Assembly (NCBI GenBank): GCA_030681135.1
Contig: JAUXXF010000025.1
Coordinates: forward strand, 12,156 to 76,155
Source: Chlamydiales bacterium
GTDB lineage: Bacteria > Chlamydiota > Chlamydiia > Chlamydiales > SM23-39
DNA length: 64,000 bases
Direction of reading: 5' to 3'
The translations under genes and the position numbers were made by a program. Positions 9,187-55,769 of the stretch are shown piece after piece; within the stretch, counting starts at the first letter, position 1, and each line of letters starts with the position of its first letter. The notes below the pieces were generated by a model. The model had not been told where the DNA came from and searched no databases. It saw nothing but the letters and a program-made list of their open reading frames with translations.

Positions 9187-10143
9187 TTAACATATTTCTG
9201 TCTCTCTGTGAAGTTTTTTGGTAGTTGTCAATTTTTTTACCAGAAGAGCCAAGAGATAAAGAAGCCCAATAACGACCGACACAATCCCTCCTGTAGAAAG
9301 CGCCCAACCATGAATGTTAAACACATGGCGAGATATTGCGACGCTCATCCAAGCAGCTCCCATTCCAATCAAAGGAGTCCATACAAGCAATCTAGAGAGC
9401 CTAGAGCAAAACAGACGAGCAATCAAATAAGGACCTGTTAACAACGTCAATACAACAACTACACCTACGGCCCGAAAAGCGCCGATGCATGTTATGGCTA
9501 CAAGAAGTAGAAAAAGATAACGAAAAAACCCTACTCTGACTCCAAAAATTCTCGCTAAAGAACTGTCAAAACTCATCAACTGAAATTGCTTAAAAAATAG
9601 AAAAATGATCATAGCATTCACGATAATCGAACAAGCTGGCAAAGCCACATCACTGATAGAGAGGGCATCAGCATTGCCCATAATCGCCTCTACCCCCAAA
9701 TGGACATCGCGTAAATAAATGGTTACGATTATGATGGCTATCGCAAAAAGCCCCGTAAACACGAGACCGATGCTCGCATCAGCCTGTAAACGAAACCATT
9801 TAGCTAATGCATCGCTGCTCACAGCTGTCAATAGAGCGGCAATAAACGCTCCTAAGAGCAAAGAAGACATATCAAACCACTGCCCTCCCCAGAAAGCTCT
9901 AGCCACAAGAGCTGAAAGAGCAATTCCTAAAAGCACGGTATGAGAAAGAGAATTTGCCAGCATTGTCATCCGCTGCAAAATAAGCAAAGGACTAACAAGC
10001 CCGCAAGAAAAAGCAACTGCACTGATGACAATCAGCTGAACTTCATCAGAGCAAAAAGCCTCCTTGCCCATGAAGAGAAGAGGGAGTCTTTGAAAAAAAA
10101 GGAGGAAAAAAGAGAAAAAATTGACATCCCAATAGGCACTCAT
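9187..10143 (-). CDS. ytgD: metal (Fe/Mn/Zn) ABC transporter permease, YtgD-like
   Basis: 318-aa polytopic membrane protein of the ZnuB/TroD type. ATGA overlap with the upstream permease gene. Fourth gene of the ytgABCD-like operon. Confidence 0.8.
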   Translation of the reverse strand: MSAYWDVNFFSFFLLFFQRLPLLFMGKEAFCSDEVQLIVISAVAFSCGLVSPLLILQRMTMLANSLSHTVLLGIALSALVARAFWGGQWFDMSSLLLGAFIAALLTAVSSDALAKWFRLQADASIGLVFTGLFAIAIIIVTIYLRDVHLGVEAIMGNADALSISDVALPACSIIVNAMIIFLFFKQFQLMSFDSSLARIFGVRVGFFRYLFLLLVAITCIGAFRAVGVVVVLTLLTGPYLIARLFCSRLSRLLVWTPLIGMGAAWMSVAISRHVFNIHGWALSTGGIVSVVIGLLYLLALLVKKLTTTKKLHRETEIC

Positions 10144-28458: not shown

Positions 28459-31400
28459 ATGAATAAGTTTACGTATTTTTTTCTGACAACATTCATCAGT
28501 TCTCTTTGTGCAAATACCATCACTGTCAGCTCAACTGCTGATACAAATACAGCAGGAACTCTTCGCAATGCGATCTTAACTGCTCAGTCAGGAGATACCA
28601 TTACCTTTACTACAAGCATAACACCTCTAACACCTATAAACCTCACCAGTCCCCTTCCAGCCATTACACAGCAAAATCTCACCATCGCTGCAACAACAGG
28701 ATTCCCGGTAACCATTAACGGAAACGGAACTTATCAAGTTTTTTCCGCGGTACAACCAGGAGTAAATACAGGCCAGCTTACATTGCAAAATATCGTGATC
28801 ACAAATGGTCTTTCTATCGGAGGTACTGGAGGTGCGGCCGACGGTTCAGGGGGTGGCGGCGGTGGCGGCGCTGGAGGAGGCGGAGGTTTGTATGTCCATA
28901 CGGGATCCAACGTCACATTGCAAAACGTCCAACTTGCTAGCAACGCTGCCCAAGGTGGCAATGGAGGCGATGTCACTGGAGGATTAAATGGAGGGGGCGG
29001 TGGTGGTGGCTTTGGATCGACTCTCACAAACCAAGCTGGAGCAGGGGGTGCTGGTTCTAGTAGCGCTTCTGGAGGAGGCGGAGGAGGCGGTGGTGGAAAC
29101 CCCTCCGGAGGTAATGGCGGAAGTGGAGGAGCAGGACAAGCGGGAGGTTCTTCAACGAATGGCGTCGTAGGCGGAGGCGGAGGTGGAGGCAGCGGAAACG
29201 GAGCAGGCGGCGCAGCGTATGCTCCCATGACAACCCCAGCGCCCACCGGAGGCGGTCATTCTGGCGGTGGTGGTGGTGGAGGCGCTGGCTTAGGAGGTAA
29301 TGGCGCCGCAGGCTCTGCTTCAGGAGGAGGGATAGGAGGAATGGGGATAGGCCCTGACACCTATTTTGGCGGTGGCGGCGGTGGGGGCGCTAACGTCACT
29401 AGCTCTTCTGGAGTCCCTGGAGGTGCGGGCTTTGGAACGGGCGGTGGCGGCGGATCGTTTCAAGGTCCTGGAGGCAATGGAGGAGACGCTGGAGGAGGAG
29501 GCGGTGGAGGCTCTAGTGGAGGAGGAGCAACCATAGACAACTGCAATGGAGGAAACGGAGGATTTGGCGCTGGGGGAGGCGGAGGAGGCAGAAGCCGCAG
29601 CGGAGGGGGTGGCGGCGAGGGAGGAAGTTCACTCTTTGGAGGAGGAAGCGGAGATAATGGCACAGGAACTAGCAGCGGCAGAGGCGGCGGTGGCGCCGCT
29701 ATGGGAGGAAATATATTTATCCAAAACCAGGCTCGGCTGACAATCGGAGATAACGTATCGATCAGCGGAGGGATTACTAGCCCAGGGAGTGGCGGAGGAG
29801 GAGGTCCAAACGAGGGAACAGCTTACGGTCCAGATATTTTTCTTCGCTCTGGAGGAACTCTTATTTTTACGAACTCAGGGATCATGACGATCACAACCAA
29901 TATAGAGAGCGATGTAGAGGAGGGTGGCGGGACCGGTGGTGGCCTCATTATGCAAGGAACAGGAACTCTCGTTTTAGGAGACTCAAACACCTACACCTCA
30001 AGTACGCAAATTCTATCTGGCACATTGCAAATCTCTCAAGATACAAATCTTGGATACTCTACAAATACCGTAACCATACAAAACGGCATTTTGCAAACAA
30101 CCGCCAACATCAACTCCGCGAGAGCTTTCTCTTTGACAGGATCCTCTGCAACGATCAGCACTGACCCACTGACGACACTGACTCTTACCGGACTCATTGA
30201 TGGATCAGGATCATTGACCAAACAAGGAACAGGCACACTGATTCTGGATCCCACTTCTCTTCCGAATACATATACAGGAAATACAACCATTGCAGCCGGC
30301 ACGTTGCAAATTCAAGGTGATTCGGCCTTAGGCAATGCAACTAGCAGCGTCACCATGGCAAGCGGTTCTACCTTAGCTGTGGTCATTCCACCTTCCAGCA
30401 GTATTTCTTCTGCCCGCCCTTTTACCCTGCAATCAGGGCCTGCAACCATCAATGTGACTGCCAACCCTGCAACAGGACCTGCTATTCTTTTTCTTACAGG
30501 CAATATGCACGGCTCAGGTCAGCTTGTTAAAACAGGAGATCAAATCCTCGGTTTATTCGGAGTGAATTCTTACAGTGGCGGGACAGTCGTTAATGAAGGA
30601 ACTCTCATTGGCAATACAATCAGCCTACCTGGAGGAAATGCTACCATCAACTCTCCAGGGATACTCACTTTTTTGCAGGCAGCTACTGGAACCTACACTG
30701 GCATCATCTCTGGAAATGGGACTCTGGAAATTGGGGACGGAGCTAGCACTTTCCCCCAAGTGACCATGAGCGCAGATAGTTCGTCTTTTACTGGTCCAAC
30801 CACAGTTTATTTAGGAGGAAACGTAAATGTAACTGGCTCTCTTGCAGCTAGCGCCGTCACCGTTCAAGCTGGAGGTTTTCTTTCTGGAACTGGGACAATA
30901 GGAACCTTGGCAAACAGCGGCAATCTTCAACCTGGAAATCCCCTAGGGACGCTGACAGTCAATGGGAATCTAACTCTCTCTGGCTCTCCAAACTTTTTTG
31001 TCGACGTGTCGCCGACAAGCAGCAGTCTTTTGCAAGTACTCGGCACAGCTGCTTTAACAGGAACATTAACCATTACGCCAACCATCACCGGTTTTTATGG
31101 TCTAGGCAATACCTACACCATTCTTACAAGTACAGGACTTACAACAGGAACTTTTTCTCCCGTTCTTTCAGATCCCAATTTTATTACTTCGGTCAGTTAC
31201 TCTTCCAATGCTGTTGTTCTTACTCTTAAAGTAGAGCAGCCTTTTTTAAACTTCCCTTACGCAAATCCTAATGAAAAGAGCGTCGGCGAAAATATCGACG
31301 CTCTTTCAGAAGCTGGCTATCTCACAAGCGCCTCCCCTCTTGGCGAAGCGATCAACTCGCTTAGAGGATTTTCTGATGCTGCAATTAACCAAGCTCTAGA

Positions 31401-32355
31401 CCAGATGCATCCGGCTCCTTTTAGCGCTTTTGCAGAAATCCAAGCAGCTTTAGGAGGTCAGCTTCTTTCGATGTTTCACCGAAGGCCAGTGCCCGGATGT
31501 GCATGCTACAAACAGAGCAGACTTTGGGTAGAGCCTTATGGCAATTGGCTCAAAGAAAAAAACATTGGGTATGAATTGGGATTCAACGCCATTTCCAAAG
31601 GAGTTGCAGGAGGCATTGATACAGAGACCGAAGACGGAATCGTGTTTGGTCTTGGCGCCGGATGGAACGACACTCATATGCAATGGCGAAGAGGACAAGG
31701 CCATAGCACGATTACAGGATACTACGGCGCTGTTTATATCGATTATGCAACTGACAATTTCTATCTTGGTCTTTCTGGAATTGGAGGCTATGATACATGC
31801 AATTCTTCGAGACATCTCCAATTTTCCACGATTAACGAACACGCAAATGCCTCTCGCCACAACGTAGAGATGATGGGGCAATTGGCAAGCGCTATCTTTT
31901 TTGGGCCCTCCGCCTGTTTTGCATTCCCCTATTTCAACTTGGATTATTTTTATTTGCGAGAAGGGAAAGCTCAGGAAAGTGGCGCGCCTGGACTAAATCT
32001 TTCAGTAAGCAGACACTCGAGCAGCACGCTTCGCTCAGAGGTTGGATTTGCTGTACAAGTACAAGATATCAACAGAGCCAACACCATGTGCGTTTCCCCT
32101 CTCTTTGGACTCGGTTGGGCAATGGAGATGCCTTTGCATAGACCTAAATATAAAGCTACCTTTGAAGATCAACCGATCCCCTTTTATGTACAAGGATGGG
32201 ACTACACATGGCAGCTATTTACCTTGCGATTTGGATTTACGATCACCTATCGATGTCTTTCTCTTGCTGGAAGCTACATCGCAGAGATGTCTCCTTTGAA
32301 GCAGACTCCCTTTTTTGATCAACGAGGAGATCTTCGTTTGGAATGGAGTTGGTAA
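28459..32355 (+). CDS. Pmp-like autotransporter, glycine-rich passenger (copy 1)
   Basis: 1298 aa. In order: signal peptide MNKFTYFFLTTFISSLCA; N-terminal ...TAGTLRNAILTAQSGDTITF motif; a ~340-aa Gly-rich tract; repeated GTGTL.L....NTYT..T.I..GTLQ autotransporter-associated beta-strand repeats; a C-terminal beta-barrel ending ...LRLEWSW. Confidence 0.85.
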   Translation: MNKFTYFFLTTFISSLCANTITVSSTADTNTAGTLRNAILTAQSGDTITFTTSITPLTPINLTSPLPAITQQNLTIAATTGFPVTINGNGTYQVFSAVQPGVNTGQLTLQNIVITNGLSIGGTGGAADGSGGGGGGGAGGGGGLYVHTGSNVTLQNVQLASNAAQGGNGGDVTGGLNGGGGGGGFGSTLTNQAGAGGAGSSSASGGGGGGGGGNPSGGNGGSGGAGQAGGSSTNGVVGGGGGGGSGNGAGGAAYAPMTTPAPTGGGHSGGGGGGGAGLGGNGAAGSASGGGIGGMGIGPDTYFGGGGGGGANVTSSSGVPGGAGFGTGGGGGSFQGPGGNGGDAGGGGGGGSSGGGATIDNCNGGNGGFGAGGGGGGRSRSGGGGGEGGSSLFGGGSGDNGTGTSSGRGGGGAAMGGNIFIQNQARLTIGDNVSISGGITSPGSGGGGGPNEGTAYGPDIFLRSGGTLIFTNSGIMTITTNIESDVEEGGGTGGGLIMQGTGTLVLGDSNTYTSSTQILSGTLQISQDTNLGYSTNTVTIQNGILQTTANINSARAFSLTGSSATISTDPLTTLTLTGLIDGSGSLTKQGTGTLILDPTSLPNTYTGNTTIAAGTLQIQGDSALGNATSSVTMASGSTLAVVIPPSSSISSARPFTLQSGPATINVTANPATGPAILFLTGNMHGSGQLVKTGDQILGLFGVNSYSGGTVVNEGTLIGNTISLPGGNATINSPGILTFLQAATGTYTGIISGNGTLEIGDGASTFPQVTMSADSSSFTGPTTVYLGGNVNVTGSLAASAVTVQAGGFLSGTGTIGTLANSGNLQPGNPLGTLTVNGNLTLSGSPNFFVDVSPTSSSLLQVLGTAALTGTLTITPTITGFYGLGNTYTILTSTGLTTGTFSPVLSDPNFITSVSYSSNAVVLTLKVEQPFLNFPYANPNEKSVGENIDALSEAGYLTSASPLGEAINSLRGFSDAAINQALDQMHPAPFSAFAEIQAALGGQLLSMFHRRPVPGCACYKQSRLWVEPYGNWLKEKNIGYELGFNAISKGVAGGIDTETEDGIVFGLGAGWNDTHMQWRRGQGHSTITGYYGAVYIDYATDNFYLGLSGIGGYDTCNSSRHLQFSTINEHANASRHNVEMMGQLASAIFFGPSACFAFPYFNLDYFYLREGKAQESGAPGLNLSVSRHSSSTLRSEVGFAVQVQDINRANTMCVSPLFGLGWAMEMPLHRPKYKATFEDQPIPFYVQGWDYTWQLFTLRFGFTITYRCLSLAGSYIAEMSPLKQTPFFDQRGDLRLEWSW

Positions 32356-35300
32356 TGCGCTATAGATGTTTACTTATTTGTTTACTCAGTCCCTTTTATC
32401 TGGCAGCGCAAGTCAACACAAATACTGATCCTGCGACACCTGTGGCAGGTACACTTCGCTATGCCATATTAAATGCCGCTCCTGGCGACACGATTACTAT
32501 CAATTTAGCAAGTCCCAACAACGTAATTACCCTTACCGGTCCTTTGCCAACCATTACGCAAACCAACCTCACCATTAGCGCAGCTTCAAGTTCAGCGCCT
32601 GTCACAATCGATGGCGCAGGCAGCTATCACATCTTTTCAGCTGTCCAAAATAATGACCCGTTGGAAAACATCACGCTGCAAAACATCACGTTGCAAAATG
32701 GGGCATCGAAAGGAGGCAACGGAGGTTCGGGGCATCAGGGGGGCGGAGGAGGCGCCGGAGGAGGAGGAGGTTTGTATGTCCACACCGGAAGCCATGTCAC
32801 TCTCAATTCAATCGTCTTCAATAACAATCAAGCTATAGGAGGAAACGGAGGAGTGGCCGGAGGTAACGGAGACAGAGGAGGAGGCGGTGGTGGCGGCTTT
32901 GGCGGAGGAAACGGGGGCAATACAACAGGCGGCGATTCTACTGGAGGTGGGGGTGGTGGCGTTGCAGGAGGCCGTGGGGGAGATAACAGCGCTCTCGCTG
33001 GAGCTGGTGGCCGTTCAGGATTTGTGCAAAGTGGCGGTGGAGGAGGGGGAAGCTCCACTGAAAATGGAGGGGTAGCCTACCGACCTCAAGATGCTACTCT
33101 TTCTTACTCTGGAGGAACAGGTTCAGGAGGAGGAGGTGGAGGAGCTGGAGCTGGAGGAGCCGGAAGTGGCGCCAATGGAATTGGGGGAACGGGGGGACCT
33201 GGAATTGGAATCGACCAATTATTTGCGGGGGGAGGAGGCGGAGGAGCTAGCACCTCTACTGCGCAAAATGGAGGGGCCGGAACAGGGATGGGAGGAGGGG
33301 GAGGCGCAAATTCCGGGTCTGGAAATTCCAGAGCTGGAGGTGCTGGAGGAAGTTTAGGTGGCGGGGGGGGCGCAGGATCCAACAGAAACGACGACAGCAT
33401 TGGCGGCCAGGGAGGCTTTGGAGGAGGAGGGGGCGGAGGGAAAACTGGCGGCATCAGCATCTTCGCAGGAGGCACTGGAGAAGACGCAGTCAGTGGAGGC
33501 GGAGGCGCTGCGCTCGGAGGGGCGATTTATGTGCAAAATGGAGCAACTCTTACCATTCTCAATGCCAGTTTTAGCGGAAATACCGTCACACCGGGAACAG
33601 GAGGATCTCCTGTAGCGCTAGCGCTCAGCAATGATCTTTTTATCCGCTCTGGAGGCACAGTCACCTTTCAAAACGCAAGCCCTGTCACCATTACTAGCAA
33701 CATAGAGAGTGATGAGGGCGTTGGCGGCGGCACTGGAGGCGGCATCATCATGCAAGGAACTGGGACTCTCACGTTGGGATCAAGCGATCTAACGACAGGA
33801 CTCAATACTTACACCGAAAGCACGCAAATTCTCTCTGGCACACTCCAAGTCTTCCAAGATGCCAATCTTGGCAGCTCTTCCAATTCTGTGACGATAGGAA
33901 ACGGCACCCTGCAAGCGCTGGGATCTTTTAGTTCGCCGCGCAGCATTACACTCAGCGGTTCAGCCATAGTCAACACAGGTTTAAGCAGTACATTGACCCT
34001 CACAGGCATCATCACCGGCGCAGGGAGCCTTTCAGTAACAGGAACCGGAGTCCTTGCCTTGCAAGGAGTCAATACCTACATCTCAAGCACGCAAATTGTA
34101 TCTGGCACGCTGCAAATCGCTCAAGATTCCAACCTGGGCAACTCTTCTAATAATCTTGTGATACAAAATGGCACGCTACAAATTATGCCTGGTTTTGCCT
34201 CCAGCAGCAGACCTATTTCTCTCACAGGTGCAGCTACGATCGACACTCAAGCAAATAACTTTACTCCAACAGGAACGATCAGCGGCTCAGGGAGCCTGAC
34301 GAAAGTAGGAACAGGCACACTCATTCTTTCCCCTGGCAATACATATTCTGGAGGGACAAACCTCTCGGCAGGGACCATCAGTTTTAGCGCCAACACTTCT
34401 CTAGATGATTCAGCTTTGGGAGCGTTGAATAAACAAGTAAGCCTCGCCTCCGGAACAACCCTCATCGCAACGGGAACGAATCCCATTCATTCAACACGCC
34501 CTTTTGTCTTGCAAGATCCAGCAATTCCTCCTGCAACCTTTGATGTACAAGCTTCGGCTCCTTTTACTATCAACGGCTCTATCACAGGCGATGGAGCACT
34601 TACAAAGACAGGCCCCGGAGATCTAGTCCTCTTTGGAGCTAATTCCTATAGCGGTGGCACAACAATCACGCAAAATAGGCTCGTTGGGAATACCTCAGGT
34701 TTGCAAGGGACGATCACCTTCAATAATCCAACCACGCTCGTCTTTGTCCAAGCAGCCTCTGGAACGTTTCAAGGAACGTTGGTTGGCAATGGAACCCTTC
34801 AAATAGGAGACACCCCTGCTCCCCCCTCTCTTCTACCGCCTGTCATCATCGCCAATGCAAATCCCTTATTTACGGGTCCTACAAATATTCTTTCCGGAGG
34901 AAACCTAAAAGTAAACGGCTCTTTAGCGAATAGTTCTTTAATGACGATCTCTTTAGGAGGTCTACTTACTGGAACTGGAATTGTAGGTCCGTTGACAAGC
35001 TCCGGCTGGGTTGAGCCTGGCAATAGCATAGGAACATTGACCGTCCAAGGAGATTTAACGCTGCTGCCTTCCTCGAATTTTCTTGTCCAGATTTCTCCTA
35101 CGGAAGCGAGTTTACTTCAGGTGCTTGGAAATGCGGCTTTGGATGGAACGGTCACAGTATTGCCCTTGTTCCCCTCTGGTTTTTATGGCATCGGCAATAG
35201 CTATACAATCTTGACCAATACAGGAGTCCAATCAGGAACATTTGCTCCCATTCCCCCCTCACCCAATTTAGAAGCAACCCTATCGTATTTTCCCCATTCC

Positions 35301-36443
35301 GTGATTCTGAATATAAAAGTCGAAAAGCCTTTCCTCAATTTTCCCTACGAAAATCCCAATGAACAAAGTGTAGGCGAAAATATCAATGCTCTTTCGGCAG
35401 CAGGCGATATCCCTGCTGGATCTCCCCTGGCACAGGCAATTAATTCGCTGATAGGACTTTCGAATTCACAAATCGATCGAGCTCTCGATCAAATGCATCC
35501 AGCGCCTTTTAGCGCCTTTGCAGAAATTCAAGCGGCTCTGGGAGGCCAGCTTCTTTCGATGTTCCACAGAAGGCCCGCTCCTGGTTGCGCCTGTTTTAAC
35601 GGCAGCCGTTTATGGCTAGAACCTTATGGCAACTGGCTCAAAGAAAAAAACGTTGGATACCAAGTAGGTTTTAACGCGATTTCGAAAGGAGTTGCAGGAG
35701 GAATTGATACGGAGACGGAAGATGGTCTCATCTTTGGCCTTGGCGCGGGCTGGAATGATACGGAGATGCAGTGGAGGCGCGGTCAAGGTCACAGCACCAT
35801 TCGAGGATGGTTTGGAGGCGCCTACATCGATTATACAAGCGACAACTTTTATCTTGGCCTTTCTGGTCTTGGAGCCTATGACTCTTGCGAATCTTCAAGA
35901 CATATTCAATTTTCTACCGTCAACGAACGGGCCAGCGCAAAACGTCATAACGTCGAAATGATGGGACAATTTGCAAGCGCTGTGTTCTTCGGCCCCGACT
36001 CTTGCTTTGCCTTCCCCTATTTCAACCTAGATTATTTTTACTTAAGAGAAGGAAGCGCTCAAGAAAGCGGCGCGCCCGGCCTTAATCTCTCAGTCAGCAG
36101 ACACTCTAGCAGCACGCTCCGCTCAGAGGCTGGATTTGCTGTACAAGTGCAAGATATGAATAAAGCTAATACGATGTGCGTTTCTCCCCTCTTTGGACTC
36201 GGATGGGCGATGGAGCTGCCACTACAGCGGCCCAAGTATAAAGCTTCTTTTGAAGGAGAACCAATCCCTTTTTACACACAAGGGTGGGACTATACATGGC
36301 AACTATTTACCCTGCGCTTTGGGTTTAGCATTACGTATCGATGTCTTTCTATTTGGGGAGGATATACAGCAGAAATGTCTCCCCTGGAGCGAACTCCATT
36401 TTTTGATCAGCGAGGAGACATTCGTTTAGAATATAGCTGGTAA
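32355..36443 (+). CDS. Pmp-like autotransporter, glycine-rich passenger (copy 2)
   Basis: Same architecture as copy 1. It contains GGAIYVQNGATLTILNASFSGN (GGAI plus FxxN). The C-terminal third is closely similar to copy 1 and ends ...IRLEYSW. The preferred start is the ATG at 32355 (TAATG overlap, then signal peptide MRYRCLLICLLSPFYLAAQ). The track start at 32343 adds MELV. Confidence 0.85.
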   Translation: MRYRCLLICLLSPFYLAAQVNTNTDPATPVAGTLRYAILNAAPGDTITINLASPNNVITLTGPLPTITQTNLTISAASSSAPVTIDGAGSYHIFSAVQNNDPLENITLQNITLQNGASKGGNGGSGHQGGGGGAGGGGGLYVHTGSHVTLNSIVFNNNQAIGGNGGVAGGNGDRGGGGGGGFGGGNGGNTTGGDSTGGGGGGVAGGRGGDNSALAGAGGRSGFVQSGGGGGGSSTENGGVAYRPQDATLSYSGGTGSGGGGGGAGAGGAGSGANGIGGTGGPGIGIDQLFAGGGGGGASTSTAQNGGAGTGMGGGGGANSGSGNSRAGGAGGSLGGGGGAGSNRNDDSIGGQGGFGGGGGGGKTGGISIFAGGTGEDAVSGGGGAALGGAIYVQNGATLTILNASFSGNTVTPGTGGSPVALALSNDLFIRSGGTVTFQNASPVTITSNIESDEGVGGGTGGGIIMQGTGTLTLGSSDLTTGLNTYTESTQILSGTLQVFQDANLGSSSNSVTIGNGTLQALGSFSSPRSITLSGSAIVNTGLSSTLTLTGIITGAGSLSVTGTGVLALQGVNTYISSTQIVSGTLQIAQDSNLGNSSNNLVIQNGTLQIMPGFASSSRPISLTGAATIDTQANNFTPTGTISGSGSLTKVGTGTLILSPGNTYSGGTNLSAGTISFSANTSLDDSALGALNKQVSLASGTTLIATGTNPIHSTRPFVLQDPAIPPATFDVQASAPFTINGSITGDGALTKTGPGDLVLFGANSYSGGTTITQNRLVGNTSGLQGTITFNNPTTLVFVQAASGTFQGTLVGNGTLQIGDTPAPPSLLPPVIIANANPLFTGPTNILSGGNLKVNGSLANSSLMTISLGGLLTGTGIVGPLTSSGWVEPGNSIGTLTVQGDLTLLPSSNFLVQISPTEASLLQVLGNAALDGTVTVLPLFPSGFYGIGNSYTILTNTGVQSGTFAPIPPSPNLEATLSYFPHSVILNIKVEKPFLNFPYENPNEQSVGENINALSAAGDIPAGSPLAQAINSLIGLSNSQIDRALDQMHPAPFSAFAEIQAALGGQLLSMFHRRPAPGCACFNGSRLWLEPYGNWLKEKNVGYQVGFNAISKGVAGGIDTETEDGLIFGLGAGWNDTEMQWRRGQGHSTIRGWFGGAYIDYTSDNFYLGLSGLGAYDSCESSRHIQFSTVNERASAKRHNVEMMGQFASAVFFGPDSCFAFPYFNLDYFYLREGSAQESGAPGLNLSVSRHSSSTLRSEAGFAVQVQDMNKANTMCVSPLFGLGWAMELPLQRPKYKASFEGEPIPFYTQGWDYTWQLFTLRFGFSITYRCLSIWGGYTAEMSPLERTPFFDQRGDIRLEYSW

Positions 36444-41602: not shown

Positions 41603-41657
41603 AGATCACATTCGATTGAAATACATGTTGGATTCCGCAAAGGGAGGCTTTTCGTGA
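41592..41657 (+). pseudogene. 21-codon remnant of a HepT (DUF86) toxin gene
   Basis: An ATG overlaps the MntA 3' end (TATGGAAAATAA), as in intact mntA-hepT pairs. MENKDHIRLKYMLDSAKGGFS* resembles the HepT N-terminus (..D..yL.hiLDai..) and then stops. Confidence 0.4.
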
Positions 41658-43510
41658 TTTTTAAGTGGCATAGATCTTCTCTTTTGCGAATTTTATTTTG
41701 CGGAGTTCTCGTTATGGCTGCGCAGGGCGAAGCCTGCGAAGAAATCGACCAATTTATTGCAAAAATCCCGCATGAACAAAAAATTACTCTAGAACAGACC
41801 TCAAAAAACATACTGACGTCTGTATTTGCAACCCTCGGCTATGTTTTGTATGGCAATAAACCCATGTGTATCGTAGCCACACATGAATTTTCAAAAATCC
41901 CGAATGCACAGGCGTCTTGCGATATTGATATTACTGAACTTAAATGGTTTGATTTCTTAACTGGACTAAATATCCAGCCTCAAGACAAAAAATATCCATT
42001 TATTGAGTGCAAAAGCCAATACCTTAGACACCTTATTTTCATTAACAGAAATCTATTTATTGAAACTGTAAACAAAAATCTTCCTTTGTTTAGATCTATT
42101 TTAGGAAGAACATTAACGGCAGAGAGTTTTCTAGATACATTATTAAAAAGTGGAGATTATTTCTATGACAACTTGAAATCTAATAAACTCCTTCTTGGCA
42201 TTCTTTTGGGCTATGGGACTCAAAACGCTTTGCTTGTTTCTAGAGAAGAAGACTTGACATGTGAATTAGGTGACGACAGAATCCATTTCCCCTTTAAAAG
42301 TTACGAGACATTCATTGGGTTTCAGCAAGTTCCGTCTATTGGATTCTCAACTATACAGGAAGAGCAGAAAAAACTATCCAGTTTGATTGAAGTTTCTACG
42401 AACATTAAGGATTTTGACTATTGTCCCATCCCAAATTTTGGATGCGATCCGAGTTTAAAAGAGACAAAGGATCTCCTTTCCGTTTATGAAAAAAACCGAG
42501 AAAAGATCATCAAGATTGTGAAAGAAGAAAATGTCTTAGCAAAATTAGTAAAACGCTTGTGTACCACTGTCTCCGGCGCAGTGAAACCGCCTCAGGATTT
42601 AGACAAGCCGATTCACAACATTTCTTACGAAGATAGTTCGATGTTGAAAAAATTCATCGATTGCGTTGCTTTGAATATGTTTCAAAAATGTAAAGATCCC
42701 CACTTCAAAGAAAAGCCCTTGATCGAAGCCGTTGTAAAAGGGATGAAGTGTGCTGAAGAGGGAGGATCTTGTCCCATTCCAGACTGGACCGGAACTTGGT
42801 CGCACGGATATGATGCCCGGGGGATTTTTGAGCAGCATCTAGATGAAAAAAAGGCTGACCAATTACTTAAGAAACTAACTAAGCAAAATGATGTCATTAA
42901 ACTGGTTCCGAATTATATTTATCACAAAGTTCTGGTTCAAGGCGAAGGAATTCCAGCAACAAACAAGATCAAAAATGCGACTTTTCATTTTTCCTTGTAC
43001 GCTGATGATGGGACATTTATTCACTCTGGAACGATCAAAAAAGTCGATCTAGAAAAACTCGTTCCAGGCGTTGCTTATTCTCTCATCGGAATGCAAAGAG
43101 GCGAAGAGCGGGTTATATATATTCACCCAAAATATGCCCATGAAAGACCCTTCTATCCATCATCAATGATATTGACTACAACCCACCTTAAATTATTGGA
43201 CTTTGAAGAGGGAGAAACTGAAGCAGCCCTTCCCAAGATTCGTAGAGATCTCGTCGATGCAGAACATTTTCAGGATTTTTTACACGGATATCAAAAAGCT
43301 AAGAGAGCTTCCTGTTTCTACTCAGGCTACCATTTTTGGAAAAATATAAAGGAACTTGATATCGATCTTGATCTAGAGGAATTTTCTAAGCGTTTTAAAT
43401 CAGAGTCCATCTCCCCTCTTTTTCAAAGTGACGAGGAAGCAAGGCAATTTATTCTTGATTTCAACTGCTACTTATTTACTCGCGAATATGCAAGAGAGAC
43501 GATCCCTTAG
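41654..43510 (+). CDS. secreted hypothetical protein with a divergent FKBP-like domain
   Basis: 618 aa. The GTG start is preceded by GGAGG at 6 nt. Signal-peptide-like MIFKWHRSSLLRILFCGVLVMAAQGEA. Near aa 430-510, ATFHFSLYADDGTFIHSG...LVPGVAYSLIGMQRGEERVIYIHPKYAHE aligns by eye to the FKBP core (V.YTG.L.DG..FDSS...VI.G..EG...M..G....L.I.P..AYG). Confidence 0.6.
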   Translation: MIFKWHRSSLLRILFCGVLVMAAQGEACEEIDQFIAKIPHEQKITLEQTSKNILTSVFATLGYVLYGNKPMCIVATHEFSKIPNAQASCDIDITELKWFDFLTGLNIQPQDKKYPFIECKSQYLRHLIFINRNLFIETVNKNLPLFRSILGRTLTAESFLDTLLKSGDYFYDNLKSNKLLLGILLGYGTQNALLVSREEDLTCELGDDRIHFPFKSYETFIGFQQVPSIGFSTIQEEQKKLSSLIEVSTNIKDFDYCPIPNFGCDPSLKETKDLLSVYEKNREKIIKIVKEENVLAKLVKRLCTTVSGAVKPPQDLDKPIHNISYEDSSMLKKFIDCVALNMFQKCKDPHFKEKPLIEAVVKGMKCAEEGGSCPIPDWTGTWSHGYDARGIFEQHLDEKKADQLLKKLTKQNDVIKLVPNYIYHKVLVQGEGIPATNKIKNATFHFSLYADDGTFIHSGTIKKVDLEKLVPGVAYSLIGMQRGEERVIYIHPKYAHERPFYPSSMILTTTHLKLLDFEEGETEAALPKIRRDLVDAEHFQDFLHGYQKAKRASCFYSGYHFWKNIKELDIDLDLEEFSKRFKSESISPLFQSDEEARQFILDFNCYLFTREYARETIP

Positions 43511-43534
43511 AGATTTTTATACCACAAGCTTCAA

Positions 43535-44236
43535 ATGATAATAAATTCGAATCCTTCGGAAAGTTATGATTTACGTTATAATGGCTACCCCAAAACAAGC
43601 GAAATATTGCCATTATCTTCCAGGATTTATGCAATAGCGAAAACAGTTTTCTTCTTTTTCAAAGCCATTTGTTCATTTTTCAATGAGGACACCCTTAAAA
43701 TAATGAAAGAACACGCTGCTTGCGCGTGGACAGGTGTTCGATATAAAAAATTACAAGGATTAGCTAATTTTGATGGCAGATTCACAGTTACTCTGCTGCC
43801 TGAAAATGAGGCATTATTAAGAAATCTTTTGGACGAATCCCCTTATCCACTCGATACATTGATCCGACGAAATTCAGTATCGTTCCCCCCAAATTTTGAT
43901 GAATTAAATCCTCCAGTTACACTAGGTATAGTTCAAGGTTGGCAAGGAGAGCGCACAGATCCTGCTATACTAATTAAAATTTCTGGAGAATCTCTTGCTA
44001 CAGGAAAAATCACAAAAACTGTAGTTTTATTAACACAACGACATAATTTATTGAGCAAATTAGTTGAGTTCACATTAGTCAAAAAAGAGAATGAAACACT
44101 AAGATCCTTATTTTTTAAATCTGACAAAGAAAGCTTTCCTGAAGTTCGTAATGAAGAGAACGGATTTCAATCTCTTAAGCAGCTTTTATCTAAAGGACAA
44201 GTGATGATCGATCAAATGACTTGGAAGTTGGCTTGA
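43535..44236 (+). CDS. hypothetical protein
   Basis: 233-aa ORF co-oriented with its neighbours. One hydrophobic stretch (IYAIAKTVFFFFKAICSFF). No family recognised. Confidence 0.5.
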   Translation: MIINSNPSESYDLRYNGYPKTSEILPLSSRIYAIAKTVFFFFKAICSFFNEDTLKIMKEHAACAWTGVRYKKLQGLANFDGRFTVTLLPENEALLRNLLDESPYPLDTLIRRNSVSFPPNFDELNPPVTLGIVQGWQGERTDPAILIKISGESLATGKITKTVVLLTQRHNLLSKLVEFTLVKKENETLRSLFFKSDKESFPEVRNEENGFQSLKQLLSKGQVMIDQMTWKLA

Positions 44237-44350
44237 AACTTCTAAGTGACGTGAACCTATGTCAATTCGGACGCAATTCGAACTTTCGACTCGAAAAAGT
44301 TTCACGAACGTATTAAGATGTTTATCTTACTTAAAAAAATTGAGGAAACC

Positions 44351-45493
44351 ATGAACCGCCCACATTTATTCATCTCTGCCTTTTTAGGGCTTGCTCTCAC
44401 ATTCGTACATGCAGAGTTTTCATCTGAAGATCATATCTCCATTTCCTCCGAAAAACAGTCTATGATACCTGCTTATTTGAAAGATCTTGAAGAATTTGGA
44501 TATTGCGTTATTCCCGATGTGATTTCGAAAGCTGAAACAGAGGTTCTGTACCAACGTGTTTGGCATGAATATATTGAAAAAGCATGGCCAAATTGCAACA
44601 TGAGTGATCGAAGCAACTGGAGAGAAACATTTCCAGCCCATAATAAACTAGGGATTTTTTGCGGTCCTGCCGGCCAAACTCAAGTCATGTGGGATGTAAG
44701 ACAAGATTCCCGAATCGTCGATATTTTTACTCAAATTTGGAATACAAGTGACCTCATAGTGAGCATGGATGGGTTATCCATTATGTGTCCATCTGAAATA
44801 CGGGAAGAAAATTTTGAGCCATGGCCTCACGTCGATCAAGGAATCAACAAACGACGAGATGGCGTCTTACATAACAATCTTCCTCCCGCTGATTTTGTGA
44901 GCGAATCATCACTAAAAACGAAACCATTTACCATTCAAGGACAGTTTTTATTTGAAGATTCTTTCGATGGTGACGGAGGATTCTTTTGCATTCCAAAGTC
45001 ACACCTTCGATTTGAAGAATTCTCTTCCGCCCTTGAAGCTCTTTATGCACTGAATATTCCCTGGAACGAGAAAATTAAAATAAGAGATGATTACTTACGA
45101 GATATCTTCGGAACAAGCTGCGATGAACCTAACAATATGTATCCGATGAAACATGTAAAAGCTCCACGAGGCTCTCTCATTCTATGGGATTCGAGAACCA
45201 TTCACTGGAATCAACATCCGCAAAAAGACAGACCTTTTAGCAAATGCCCAAAAGTCAGAATGGTCGGATATCTTTGCTATGTTCCAAGAAAAAGAATGTC
45301 TGACGACATCAAAGCTCTTCGAATCAAAGCTTTTGAGACAGGCGTCTCCACAGGTCATAATCCCACTCAGTTTGACCTTAAATATACCAAAGACCATATC
45401 TGGGAAGGTTATGAGCAATATATTGAAGATCCAAGCTACATGCAGCCACACATTTATCTCACCCCATTAGGTGAATCGTTGCTAGGTCGATAG
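44351..45493 (+). CDS. PhyH-family Fe(II)/2-oxoglutarate dioxygenase with signal peptide
   Basis: The ATG at 44351 has GAGGA upstream; the track start is 44318. Signal peptide MNRPHLFISAFLGLALTFVHA. GYCVIPDVISKAETEVL, WPHVDQG (HxD) and PRGSLILWDSRTIHWN (distal His) match the phytanoyl-CoA dioxygenase pattern. Confidence 0.72.
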   Translation: MNRPHLFISAFLGLALTFVHAEFSSEDHISISSEKQSMIPAYLKDLEEFGYCVIPDVISKAETEVLYQRVWHEYIEKAWPNCNMSDRSNWRETFPAHNKLGIFCGPAGQTQVMWDVRQDSRIVDIFTQIWNTSDLIVSMDGLSIMCPSEIREENFEPWPHVDQGINKRRDGVLHNNLPPADFVSESSLKTKPFTIQGQFLFEDSFDGDGGFFCIPKSHLRFEEFSSALEALYALNIPWNEKIKIRDDYLRDIFGTSCDEPNNMYPMKHVKAPRGSLILWDSRTIHWNQHPQKDRPFSKCPKVRMVGYLCYVPRKRMSDDIKALRIKAFETGVSTGHNPTQFDLKYTKDHIWEGYEQYIEDPSYMQPHIYLTPLGESLLGR

Positions 45494-45504: not shown

Positions 45505-46302
45505 ATGAAAAACCCTCTTATTTTCTGGCTGCTTCTGTTCATATCGGCTCACCTGCCTCTTTCTGCAAACAGCTGTCCAATCGTCGAAGAAAGACATCAG
45601 CTATTTATCTTAGGAGTTTTGGCTTATTTGCATAACCAATCGACAGTTGATCCAAAACCAGGACATGATATTACTGCTCTCATTGCGTGGGATGTGGAAA
45701 ATATAAATAAAACTCCAGAATTTGTCCTGGATAGAAACCGAAACTTCGAAAAACAGGGAAATATTTTTCATGCAGAGATGATGACGATTGAAAAAGCAGC
45801 TTGGAAAGAATTCGATTCAAGCATAGACCCTCTCCAGCCTGCAGAAAAGCAATATTCCCGCCGATTAGCTAATGCCACCTTATACAGCTCTTTAGAACCC
45901 TGCCCCTTTTGTACTATGGGAATCACTGTGGCTCGTATTCCTAAAGTGATCTATTTTATGGAAGATCCTGGTCTACGAGATAGTAAAACGCATCTGCCTC
46001 TATTTCCTTTCCCTAATGAATTTCTTGCAAAAAAAATTCCGCACTTCATCTCTTCTTCTTTGCCACTTGCCGAAAAAGTGAACCAAGAACTAAGAGAAAT
46101 GCTTTTGCAAAACCATTTTGGAAAATATACAGTTACTCTACCCAATGGACAAACTGTTTTCGACTTTAGAGGCTACTTTGAAGAAGAGCTCAAGCGACTC
46201 CTCAAATTGGGGCATGAGCTTTTTTCTTCCTATGAGATACTCCATAAAGAAAATAAAGAGTTATACAACAAGATAGCAAAGGCCATAGGATTCTCATCCT
46301 AA
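45505..46302 (+). CDS. CDA-fold (cytidine/deoxycytidylate/TadA-like) zinc deaminase with signal peptide
   Basis: 265 aa. Signal peptide MKNPLIFWLLLFISAHLPLSANS. Zinc/catalytic motifs HAEMMTIEKA and SLEPCPFCTMGI (H-A-E ... P-C-x-x-C), then ...IPKVIYFMEDPG. Confidence 0.75.
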   Translation: MKNPLIFWLLLFISAHLPLSANSCPIVEERHQLFILGVLAYLHNQSTVDPKPGHDITALIAWDVENINKTPEFVLDRNRNFEKQGNIFHAEMMTIEKAAWKEFDSSIDPLQPAEKQYSRRLANATLYSSLEPCPFCTMGITVARIPKVIYFMEDPGLRDSKTHLPLFPFPNEFLAKKIPHFISSSLPLAEKVNQELREMLLQNHFGKYTVTLPNGQTVFDFRGYFEEELKRLLKLGHELFSSYEILHKENKELYNKIAKAIGFSS

Positions 46303-53708: not shown

Positions 53709-55769
53709 TCACATAGAAAAAGGTTCTTCATTTTCAAAAATTTCAAGAACTTTTGCTTGAAGCTCTTGATTTTCACTGAAAAGAAGATAACCTAAATAGG
53801 GAATTTCTTGAAAAACTAAAGAAAAAGAAACTAACGCATGTTGAGCTAACCCAAGAGACGCAAGACGCTCTTGCAATCTAGAAACTTGAGCTGGTTTTAA
53901 ATCTGGCAAGATCGCAAATAATCTTCGGCTATCTTGTTTCAAGAGCCAATCTCCAGCTTTACGTTTACTTCTTATATCAACTCTGATGGCCTGCAAAAAC
54001 ATCAAAAACCACTGCTTTAAAAGATCGGGCTCCAAGACACTTCGCATTTCCATCGGCATTAATGCATAAAAAAATTGTTCGAGTAGCAAACTGTGCTGGT
54101 TGGCCGCTTTTCCCAAACTTGTCTTTACATGATCCAAAAGCTCTAGCTGCTTGAGAATCATTCCTCCATTAAAATCTCTCACTTCGCCCACTAAACGGAC
54201 GATTTCAGTAAAAATACTTTGACGCGCTTTATATAAATCGATAGAACGATCAAAACGCATAAAATCTTTCATTGGGACTGCTACACGAACAAGAGCCGCT
54301 TCTTTAGCATATTTTTGTCGAATAGAACCAAGCCTTCTCACTCTTTCTGGGAAAAAGCAGATACTTGTCTTATCTGATGCAAAAAGCTCCTGTACAGGTT
54401 TGCTATTTTCTCCCCGAACTCTTAGCAAGATAATTGTAAAACAAAGATCATCCCCTTTTTGCTCATCAAACGAGATGACTACTTGAGGTCTGTCGCTTAC
54501 ATAACGGATCTGCCTAGAAAGAACCATAATATTTTTTAAGACATCTTCTTCATTGCGCGGCATGAAGATTGGATGCGTCAGCTGTTCTATATTCTCTGTC
54601 AAACTTGCAGGGAGAGCTGTCCGAAGACCTTGGACTTCATCAAACGAAAAATCCTCTCCACTTTGCTTTTCGATCTCGACATAAACAAGCTGCAAAGAGC
54701 TCTCATTGTCTTTTTCTACAATCATCGACCCTTCAACAAGACGCACCTCGTTCATGATTTTTTGAATAGCTGCGACTAAATGGTGATGATTAAACAGTTC
54801 GTGTTCACGTAAAAAATTGAGTCCTACTAAAACGCCCAGTACCGGCCTTTCTTGCTTTGGGCTCGTTTCCATATAAAGTCGTGTTTTCAAAAATTTCACC
54901 ATCACATGGCGCTTGCCTGGCAGCTCAACAATTTGCTGTTGCAGCACTTTTTGGACGGAATGAATATTAGAAATAATACGGCTAATATGATGATAGTCTC
55001 GAACTTTTTTAAAATCTTCTCGGCAAGTGACTAAAAAATGTTGCATTTGCGAAAAGATGCCTCGATCAAAATCTTTAGAATGGCTTTGAATGAGCGAACC
55101 AATTTTTTCCTGAATCATCGCCGTCTTGCCATCCATTGAAAGGCCCTTGAACTCCAAAATGCGGCGAGCATGATAATTAGAGGCAACTCCCAACCGAATT
55201 TCCGTCTCAATCGCATGAAGATTTCGGCGAACCTCTTCCACTTCCTGTAAGCTTTTTAGATAAACAACAATCTCCGCAACGCTGAGTAGTTCATCAGATA
55301 AATGAGGCAACCTGACATCAGACGCAAAAAAGAGCTCCACATTGATTTTTTTTGCAGGCAATAACCACCTGCTGATCATATCGTAAAAAAAATGACAGGC
55401 ATTCTGACGAAATTTACATAGTAAAAGAACAGAAAGAGAACAAGGAGCTCTAGAGAGCTCTGACCAGCAAACTTGAGGAATCAAATCTGAAAACCGGGCT
55501 CTTTGCCAAGCGGCCTGATAAGGAGAAGGCTCTAATAAATCAGCTGGCAAAATTTTTTGAATAATATCTTGCGCCCCTTCCCGATAATACTCTGCTTCGA
55601 TGAAAGGACAACTAAAGGTGAAATCAAATTCTAATTGCTGCGCCGGCCGTTTTTTCCCAAAAGAACTTGAAGTATCCGGAGGACATACACTTGTCGCAGA
55701 AGAAGAAAAGCGGTCTTTTACATCCCGGTCGAACACTAAAGGCATTTGCATACGACACTCACTCATCAA
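53709..55769 (-). CDS. hypothetical protein (686 aa), translationally coupled to the upstream kinase gene
   Basis: Long uninterrupted ORF with an ATGA overlap with the gene at 55766-56545. No motif recognised. Confidence 0.65.
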   Translation of the reverse strand: MMSECRMQMPLVFDRDVKDRFSSSATSVCPPDTSSSFGKKRPAQQLEFDFTFSCPFIEAEYYREGAQDIIQKILPADLLEPSPYQAAWQRARFSDLIPQVCWSELSRAPCSLSVLLLCKFRQNACHFFYDMISRWLLPAKKINVELFFASDVRLPHLSDELLSVAEIVVYLKSLQEVEEVRRNLHAIETEIRLGVASNYHARRILEFKGLSMDGKTAMIQEKIGSLIQSHSKDFDRGIFSQMQHFLVTCREDFKKVRDYHHISRIISNIHSVQKVLQQQIVELPGKRHVMVKFLKTRLYMETSPKQERPVLGVLVGLNFLREHELFNHHHLVAAIQKIMNEVRLVEGSMIVEKDNESSLQLVYVEIEKQSGEDFSFDEVQGLRTALPASLTENIEQLTHPIFMPRNEEDVLKNIMVLSRQIRYVSDRPQVVISFDEQKGDDLCFTIILLRVRGENSKPVQELFASDKTSICFFPERVRRLGSIRQKYAKEAALVRVAVPMKDFMRFDRSIDLYKARQSIFTEIVRLVGEVRDFNGGMILKQLELLDHVKTSLGKAANQHSLLLEQFFYALMPMEMRSVLEPDLLKQWFLMFLQAIRVDIRSKRKAGDWLLKQDSRRLFAILPDLKPAQVSRLQERLASLGLAQHALVSFSLVFQEIPYLGYLLFSENQELQAKVLEIFENEEPFSM

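Follow-up and report, generated by a model that had tools for sequence, protein, structure and literature searches.

A tandem pair of PATR-type autotransporter genes with a glycine-rich passenger head in an uncultured Chlamydiales bacterium

The locus and its two genes

A stretch of 64,000 nucleotides from a Chlamydiales bacterium (positions 12,156 to 76,155 of contig JAUXXF010000025.1, assembly GCA_030681135.1), referred to below as the window, carries two adjacent genes on the same strand which encode large type Va autotransporters and are called here gene 1 and gene 2 (Table 1). The pair covers 7,985 bp or 12.5% of the window, as stated in the initial annotation (8 kb, one eighth), which was made from the sequence alone. 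Both proteins are present at NCBI in exactly this form, on a 185-kb contig whose source label is a Chlamydiales metagenome-assembled genome (MAG), and both are already annotated there as autotransporters. The open reading frame (ORF) of gene 2 could start at 32343 (1366 residues) or at 32355 (1362 residues). The deposited protein corresponds to the shorter form. At the junction, which reads TGG TAA TG, the final A of the gene 1 stop codon is the first base of the gene 2 ATG, and a GGAG motif is located six bases 5' of this ATG. The TAATG overlap initially described between two genes of about 1300 codons is therefore real, and this one-nucleotide overlap suggests translational coupling of the two genes.

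The two proteins are clearly related (BLASTP, 1034 bits, E = 0; 64% identity across the C-terminal 820 residues). Their global alignment is collinear save for one extra repeat unit of about 90 residues in gene 2, which arose long ago by internal duplication of the unit before it (56% identity), and this confirms the common architecture initially proposed. All the motifs quoted in support of it are also found: AGTLRNAIL...GDTITF in gene 1 and AGTLRYAIL...GDTITI in gene 2 near the N-terminus, GTGTLxL...NTYTxSTQILSGTLQ and PFLNFPY.NPNE.SVGENI.ALS in both, and a barrel ending in W, since both proteins terminate in SW. A tblastn search identified no third copy in the window. The GC content of the two genes (0.50-0.51) exceeds that of the window (about 0.42) mostly because of glycine codons: their Gly blocks reach 0.59-0.61 while the remainder still lies a little higher than the window as a whole (0.46-0.48). 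A promoter and terminator scan of the locus returned counts equal to the shuffled expectation and is uninformative.

Table 1. Features of the window. Positions are counted from the first letter of the window; residue numbers are those of the protein concerned. AF2, AlphaFold2 model.
Feature	Position	Strand	Evidence and remarks
Gene 1, type Va autotransporter, 1298 residues	28459..32355	+	ORF, translation, Pfam PF03797 and PF12951, exact match to NCBI MAG protein P0001
Gene 1 putative signal peptide (about residues 1-20, by eye) and N-terminal cap with AGTLRNAIL...GDTITF (21-117)	28459..28809	+	Sequence; AF2; 52% identity to gene 2
Gene 1 glycine-rich head block (118-470), 46% Gly, 12 runs G5-G9	28810..29868	+	Sequence; AF2; local GC 0.61
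Gene 1 beta-helical stalk with PATR repeats (471-930)	29869..31248	+	Pfam PATR x3; AF2; Foldseek
Gene 1 alpha-helical linker (931-1012)	31249..31494	+	AF2 helices; 77% identity; omega 0.05
Gene 1 translocator beta-barrel (1013-1298), six conserved Cys, ends WSW	31495..32352	+	PF03797 at residues 1022-1271, E 8e-29
Junction: GGAG 32345-32348, stop TAA 32353-32355, ATG 32355-32357	32345..32357	+	Sequence; start of P0002
Gene 2, type Va autotransporter, 1362 residues	32355..36443	+	ORF, translation, Pfam, exact match to NCBI MAG protein P0002
Gene 2 glycine-rich head block (117-438), 42% Gly	32703..33668	+	Sequence; AF2 of residues 20-480
Gene 2 beta-helical stalk with PATR repeats (439-994)	33669..35336	+	Pfam PATR x4; alignment
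Gene 2-only extra repeat unit, about 90 residues (563-651)	34041..34307	+	Alignments; BLASTP
Gene 2 linker (995-1076) and beta-barrel (1077-1362, at 35583-36440), ends YSW	35337..36440	+	PF03797 at residues 1086-1338, E 3.6e-31; 82% identical to gene 1
Aconitase, divergently transcribed, synteny anchor	25556..28375	-	Pfam; same neighbor in L002, L004 and L007
TLC ATP/ADP translocase, full-length	14245-15804	+	Pfam E 1e-219
Metal ABC transporter operon	9187-13251	-	ZnuA-type binding protein at 12247-13251; two ABC-3 permeases
438-residue ABC-3 permease fused to a DtxR-type Fe_dep_repr_C domain	10140-11456	-	
371-residue ORF between amino-acid permease and aconitase	23925-25040	+	No Pfam match
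Large ORFs (618, 233, 391 and 686 residues)	41654-45493 (+), 53709-55769 (-)		No Pfam match at E ≤ 1e-5
265-residue protein, weak cytidine-deaminase and MafB19-like deaminase matches	45505-46302	+	E 6e-10 and 3e-8

Domain architecture

Both proteins are classical type Va autotransporters, as had been proposed together with their PATR repeats. In both N-termini a hydrophobic stretch comes after a basic residue (MNKFTYFFLTTFISSLCA and MRYRCLLICLLSPFYLAA, judged by eye). A Pfam scan of the full proteins detected only the Autotransporter barrel and PATR, and the profiles thus uphold the barrel. The barrel profile (PF03797) is matched over nearly its whole length (positions 1-252 and 1-255 of 255) with 101.6 bits in gene 1 and 109.3 bits in gene 2 for a gathering cut-off of 26. 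The PATR profile (PF12951, cut-off 27) gives 68 and 60.7 bits with three and four copies respectively, and the NCBIfam model TIGR02601 gives 49 and 47 bits (cut-off 19.85). The C-terminal aromatic residue of the beta-signal is present in both (...LEWSW in gene 1, ...LEYSW in gene 2) and a terminal W occurs in all 20 listed members of the family.

The gene 1 passenger and linker (residues 21-1012) were modelled with AF2 from a 40-sequence alignment, with a mean predicted local distance difference test (pLDDT) of 90.4 and a predicted template modelling score (pTM) of 0.83. The cap forms a short helix and the first beta rungs (pLDDT 80-94), and a regular beta-solenoid extends from about residue 420 to 925 (pLDDT above 90). 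Alpha-helices occupy model residues 917-988, that is residues 937-1008 of the protein, directly before the barrel. The last of them (985-1008) falls inside a string of 28 residues, MHPAPFSAFAEIQAALGGQLLSMFHRRP, which is identical in both genes and lies in the linker (983-1010 of gene 1). Judging by analogy from solved structures of this type, it would be the linker helix that fills the pore. A sequence search of the PDB with gene 1 gave no match, and a Foldseek search of the PDB with the gene 1 passenger model retrieved EspC, Ssp, Ag43, SepA, EspP and pertactin (E 9e-6 to 3e-4) together with Hbp and Hap (E up to 3e-3).

The two proteins share with the classical PATR adhesins (Ag43, pertactin, EspC/SPATE stalks) a putative signal peptide, the beta-helical passenger, PATR, the helical linker, the PF03797 barrel and the terminal aromatic residue, and the predicted passenger superposes on the passenger structures of Ag43, pertactin and EspC. 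However, these structures have no counterpart to the glycine-rich N-terminal third observed here. A second difference resides in the barrel, which contains six cysteines where PATR autotransporters of non-chlamydial origin usually have none. Of the eight cysteines in each protein, six are found within the last 285 residues, some of them in a PGCAC motif where linker and barrel join, while the passenger has one in gene 1 and none in gene 2. Across 18 relatives, four of the barrel positions show no or almost no variation, and the other two are kept in the close clade; barrels of relatives in the P0001-P0031 clade carry 4-9 cysteines. In the last 300 residues the family mean is 6.7 cysteines. The corresponding mean for a set of 69 non-chlamydial PATR autotransporters is 1.4, and 43 of these lack cysteine altogether. 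In Chlamydiae the outer membrane owes stability to proteins cross-linked by disulfide bonds (PMC2878342, PMC2811131). The six conserved barrel cysteines suggest that these autotransporters could be disulfide-cross-linked into the chlamydial outer-membrane complex.

Mosaic conservation under purifying selection

The two genes were compared domain by domain using Nei-Gojobori counts, which yield the proportions of synonymous (pS) and nonsynonymous (pN) differences and their ratio dN/dS (omega). In gene 1 coordinates, identity is 52% in the N-terminal cap (21-117; pS 0.72, pN 0.35, omega 0.20), 54% in the Gly block (118-470; pS 0.73, pN 0.36, omega 0.19) and 56% in the stalk (471-930; pS 0.68, pN 0.33, omega 0.24), and rises to 77% in the linker (931-1012; pS 0.72, pN 0.11, omega 0.05) and 83% in the barrel (1013-1298; pS 0.67, pN 0.10, omega 0.06). 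The domain-specific conservation announced in the initial annotation is thus confirmed (52-56% in the passenger versus 77-83% in the linker and barrel) and the genes are not uniformly diverged. The dN/dS analysis by domain that it proposed places omega below 1 in every mature domain, at 0.19-0.24 in the passenger and 0.05-0.06 in the linker and barrel, these values being rough since dS is saturated.

Synonymous sites are saturated in all mature domains, barrel included (pS 0.67-0.73). As pS is as high in the barrel as elsewhere, the likeness of the 3' ends has been kept at the protein level by purifying selection. The mosaic therefore mainly reflects how intensely purifying selection acts on each part: it is strong for the barrel and the helix in the pore, and relaxed for the surface-exposed rungs. 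To our knowledge the translocator is more conserved than the passenger in any autotransporter family.

The pair in related genomes and its domain histories

About 20 proteins of uncultured Chlamydiae display the full architecture, with near-constant module sizes: about 115 residues for the cap, 80-82 for the linker, 285-291 for the barrel and, in 18 relatives, 299-380 for the Gly block (39-48% Gly). The order aconitase (-), autotransporter (+), autotransporter (+) recurs in two related genomes, L002 (GCA_964440435.1) and L004 (GCA_027351235.1), and a single autotransporter adjoins aconitase in a third, L007 (positions 3055-7035 of L007). The comparison of copy number suggested in the initial annotation is answered to this extent: the pair is found in L002 and L004, one copy in L007, and the number at or near the locus varies among relatives. 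A barrel scan of a genome collection returned one partial relative (48% identity, on a 4.9-kb contig) and is uninformative on copy number. Positional orthologs of L002 and L004 are 83-91% identical, and the paralogs within L002 and within L004 exhibit the same mosaic (55/60/80%). The pair is therefore old and stable.

Quartets composed of gene 1, gene 2 and the first and second gene of either relative were bootstrapped (500 replicates). Sequences group by genome in the barrel (500/500), the linker (485-495/500) and the stalk (471-485/500). The Gly block groups by gene position (399-493/500), and this persists when columns with G in all four sequences are removed (410-491/500). In independent pairwise alignments of this block, gene 1 is closest to P0008, P0004 and P0005, and gene 2 to P0006, P0007 and P0003. 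A sliding window locates the positional signal at residues 89-456 and the by-genome signal at 457-578 and 951-1230. Moreover, pN between gene 1 and gene 2 is the highest of all pairs in the N-terminus and Gly block (0.371), and in the linker and barrel (0.102) it is lower than for any other two distinct gene lineages, smaller values being seen only between the positional orthologs of L002 and L004 (0.046-0.055). These discordant domain trees are a hint of ancient homogenisation of the 3' ends. The simplest account is one ancestral duplication, after which the 3' part of the two copies was long ago homogenised within each lineage.

Alternatively, a single gene at the aconitase locus could have duplicated independently in each lineage with no conversion at all, the signal of the Gly block being an artefact of composition or alignment. 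Grouping by genome of the barrel, the linker and most of the stalk is expected under such a scenario, L007 has only one copy at the same locus, and the Gly block is of low complexity. However, the positional signal outlasts both the removal of columns with shared G and the independent pairwise alignments, the contrast in pN between the N-terminal and barrel regions runs against it, and a history with one duplication is more parsimonious than one in which the locus duplicated twice. Independent duplication is consequently a possible but doubtful account.

The gene of the relative P0008, carried by a JGI contig, begins only 5 nt downstream of a gene fragment, and another large partial gene comes next on the same strand, possibly making a run of three. 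It is itself mosaic, with a Gly block like those of first-position genes and a barrel like those of second-position genes.

The glycine-rich head

The Gly block contains 10-12 runs of five to nine glycines at irregular spacing, mostly 17-39 residues (range 8-63). Clear beta-helix rungs flank it on both sides (GGGGGLYVHTGSNVTLQNV... and GGAIYVQNGATLTI...; also GGAIYVQNGATLTILNASFSGN). The block itself has pLDDT values of 72-95 in the gene 1 model, where DSSP assigns only isolated bridges and almost no helix or strand; the gene 2 head, modelled separately (residues 20-480), has a pLDDT of 81.7. In total 76 columns of the head are invariant across 20 sequences. They are mostly Gly but also include Tyr, Phe, Leu, Pro and Ala. 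The head is probably a folded, glycine-rich continuation of the solenoid which would form the distal tip.

The block could instead be an intrinsically disordered low-complexity spacer that pushes the cap away from the cell. Its composition (42-46% Gly), the near absence of DSSP secondary structure, the stretch of low confidence in the gene 2 model (below 50 at model residues 193-249) and the failure to match a solved structure all point in this direction. Nevertheless, its length is held within 299-380 residues, many Gly and aromatic positions are invariant in 20 relatives, the gene 1 block is modelled with good confidence between clear rungs, the poly-G runs recur at a roughly rung-like spacing, and the weak fold matches are all right-handed beta-helices. 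A disordered spacer is thus an unlikely explanation.

These fold matches come from Foldseek searches with the head: against the PDB, the gene 2 model gave no match at E < 0.001 and its weak matches are right-handed beta-helices, and among the named entries matched in the viral models (BFVD) a right-handed beta-helix protein ranks first (E 7.5e-4). A polyglycine-II fold, as in the phage gp38 adhesin and in predictions for mycobacterial PE_PGRS proteins, was also considered. It shares with the head the richness in Gly, the association with adhesins and a DSSP assignment without helix or strand, but the significant or near-significant matches are to beta-helices and not to gp38 (E = 1.5 in the PDB, 0.32 in BFVD, TM 0.09-0.15), and this fold is unsupported. 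The Shigella autotransporter IcsA (VirG), also of type Va, possesses glycine-rich repeats in its N-terminal passenger (residues 117-307; PMC9769942). The relative position is the same, by analogy only, and the block described here is longer and richer in Gly. A tblastn search of 72,556 PLSDB plasmids with the head gave no match, a negative limited by the masking of low-complexity sequence in BLAST and by the presence in the collection of icsA from a Shigella virulence plasmid being assumed. No described Gly-rich chlamydial autotransporter was found in a literature search.

Neither Pfam nor NCBIfam has a model matching the first 500 residues, even at E ≤ 10. In contrast with this, a phmmer search with the head against 1.84 billion cluster representatives returned 997 matches at E ≤ 1e-3, of which 181 reach E ≤ 1e-10 and 21 reach E ≤ 1e-30. 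Many of the matches span the whole head. The matched proteins comprise PATR autotransporters as well as proteins without a barrel, and the clusters are almost all unnamed and metagenomic, one being labelled Chlamydiia. The few members of the family with a taxonomic label are environmental Chlamydiae; most have no assignment and some lack a barrel. Parts of the AGTLRxAI-plus-Gly-rich module, at times in multiple copies, occur in very large proteins of 1,700-3,400 residues (P0158, P0141, P0180). One of these has invasin/Big_1 domains, no autotransporter barrel and part of the module at its C-terminus, so that the head module is not confined to autotransporters.

A more ambitious proposal, which is tentative, is that this head of 320-350 residues (about 45% Gly) may be an undescribed folded solenoid domain, a beta-helix extension on a glycine scaffold, serving as the host-binding tip of a large family whose approximately 1,000 clusters are almost only metagenomic. 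The two paralogs would then represent two ancient head types, conserved by position and retained because each binds a different host ligand.

Recent exchange and diversification

In the initial annotation, the mosaic was read as a sign of antigenic or adhesive diversification with a potential for gene conversion. Spelled out as a model, recent duplicates would carry a diversifying passenger, and their 3' ends would be alike through conversion and provide a substrate for recombination. The likeness of the two genes is indeed far greater in barrel and linker than in the passenger, and in the barrel each copy resembles the other more than it does the corresponding genes of other genomes. However, with pS at 0.67-0.72 the linker and barrel are as saturated as the passenger and their likeness exists at the protein level only, so that it does not come from recent DNA exchange. 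The longest DNA tract identical between the genes is 18 nt, a poor substrate for homologous recombination. Furthermore, omega is below 1 in all mature domains and the positional orthologs have been distinct from the paralogs since the two related genomes split. Recent gene conversion is therefore rejected on the saturated synonymous sites and the short shared tract, and the model as a whole is highly improbable. Diversification as a present-day process is opposed by the same observations and, in addition, by the identity of the positional orthologs and the recurrence of the paralog mosaic in relatives. Positive selection on the passenger is likewise unsupported (omega 0.19-0.24), although saturation lowers the power of this test. 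Nothing indicates ongoing gene conversion or positive selection.

Relation to Pmps and other autotransporters

Members of the Pmp family are defined by many paired GGA(I,L,V) and FxxN motifs, a PMP_M middle domain (PF07548) and a barrel (PMC10715098, PMC11166332). Here GGA[ILV] occurs 0 times in gene 1 and once in gene 2, and FxxN two and five times. PF02415 (Chlam_PMP) has no match in the full proteins at E ≤ 0.01 or in the N-terminal 500 residues at E ≤ 10, and PF07548 has none in the full proteins at E ≤ 0.01. Only an autotransporter barrel in a member of the Chlamydiae is found (PF03797, the Chlamydiales MAG label and a TLC translocase in the window). Membership in the Pmp family is rejected on these profiles and counts. 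With Pmps the two proteins have in common that they are chlamydial autotransporters with beta-helical passengers, arranged as tandem paralogs and regarded as adhesins, and isolated rungs resemble the Pmp rung (GGAIYVQNGATLTILNASFSGN in gene 2). They differ in lacking the PF02415 repeats and PF07548 and in having a stalk of PATR type. Tandem autotransporter paralogs are typical of Chlamydiae.

The term Pmp-like, employed in the initial annotation, holds only in the loose sense that it has in the literature on Chlamydia-related bacteria, and fails on the Pfam profiles and motif counts of the family. It has been applied in this way to Waddlia wcw_0271, cited as an adhesin, to Protochlamydia pc0303 and to Rhabdochlamydia RhT_00552, which has five FxxN and one GGA(ILV) (PMC6490308, PMC2878342). 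Compared by description, these three proteins resemble ours in organism group, in having a passenger, a barrel and a putative signal peptide, and in their scarcity of GGA/FxxN motifs, the counts of RhT_00552 being those of gene 2; none of them appears by name among the 120 best database matches listed.

That the passengers are secreted enzymes rather than adhesins, such as EprS-like serine proteases, can hardly be maintained: the EprS autotransporter serine peptidase model is the best NCBIfam match (E 1.6e-34), but with 119 bits for a cut-off of 1700 it is rejected, it covers only profile positions 464-933, which correspond to the stalk and barrel and not to the protease domain, and neither Pfam nor NCBIfam detects a catalytic domain in the first 500 residues.

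Other genes of the window

The gene content of the window fits a chlamydial core chromosome (hrcA, dnaK, lepA, 6PGD, aconitase and rpsA-nusA-infB-truB). The TLC ATP/ADP translocase is a hallmark of energy-parasitic intracellular bacteria. The fusion of a permease with a DtxR-type domain in the metal transporter operon presumably resembles the YtgC-YtgR fusion of Chlamydia and supports a chlamydial origin.

In L002, the amino-acid permease and aconitase are separated by a 261-bp gap with no gene called. The 371-residue ORF located at this place in the window may be a lineage-specific insertion. Judging from its weak matches, the 265-residue protein could be either a housekeeping or a toxin-type deaminase.

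Proposed function and significance

Taken together, we regard it as likely, with a probability of roughly 0.8, that the locus encodes two functional type Va autotransporters on the core chromosome of an uncultured member of the Chlamydiales, forming an old and stable pair whose mosaic mainly reflects differing strengths of purifying selection and whose 3' ends may have been homogenised in the distant past. Gene 1 and gene 2 are probably co-transcribed and would be translationally coupled by the TAATG overlap. Each protein would be exported by Sec, its C-terminal barrel of 286 residues inserting in the outer membrane with the conserved alpha-helical linker filling the pore. The passenger would then fold outside the cell from the C- to the N-terminus into the PATR-type beta-helical stalk, bearing at its membrane-distal tip the glycine-rich solenoid head and the small AGTLRxAI...GDTI cap. 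The most likely role is adhesion to host cells, the two paralogs presenting two different tips on one translocator.

Several points weigh against this picture. The cap quartets favor neither grouping, and the sliding-window signal is mixed in the stalk, between the regions given above. The Gly block, which supplies the positional signal, is of low complexity, and alignment or composition may mislead there. Both AF2 models were built on shallow alignments of 20-40 sequences, and that of the gene 2 head contains a low-confidence stretch. Episodic positive selection may have acted at a few surface sites, and the adhesion role is proposed from family precedent, namely Waddlia wcw_0271.

As a find the locus is ordinary: it is an already annotated pair of old autotransporter paralogs. 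Autotransporters are regarded as scarce outside Chlamydiaceae; gene 1, gene 2 and some 20 relatives show that uncultured Chlamydiales possess autotransporters of PATR type which are not Pmps. The cysteines specific to their barrels suggest a connection, open to testing, of autotransporters with the disulfide-cross-linked outer membrane of Chlamydiae. Finally, the glycine-rich head, undescribed in domain databases and present in about a thousand metagenomic clusters, is a candidate new adhesin module.

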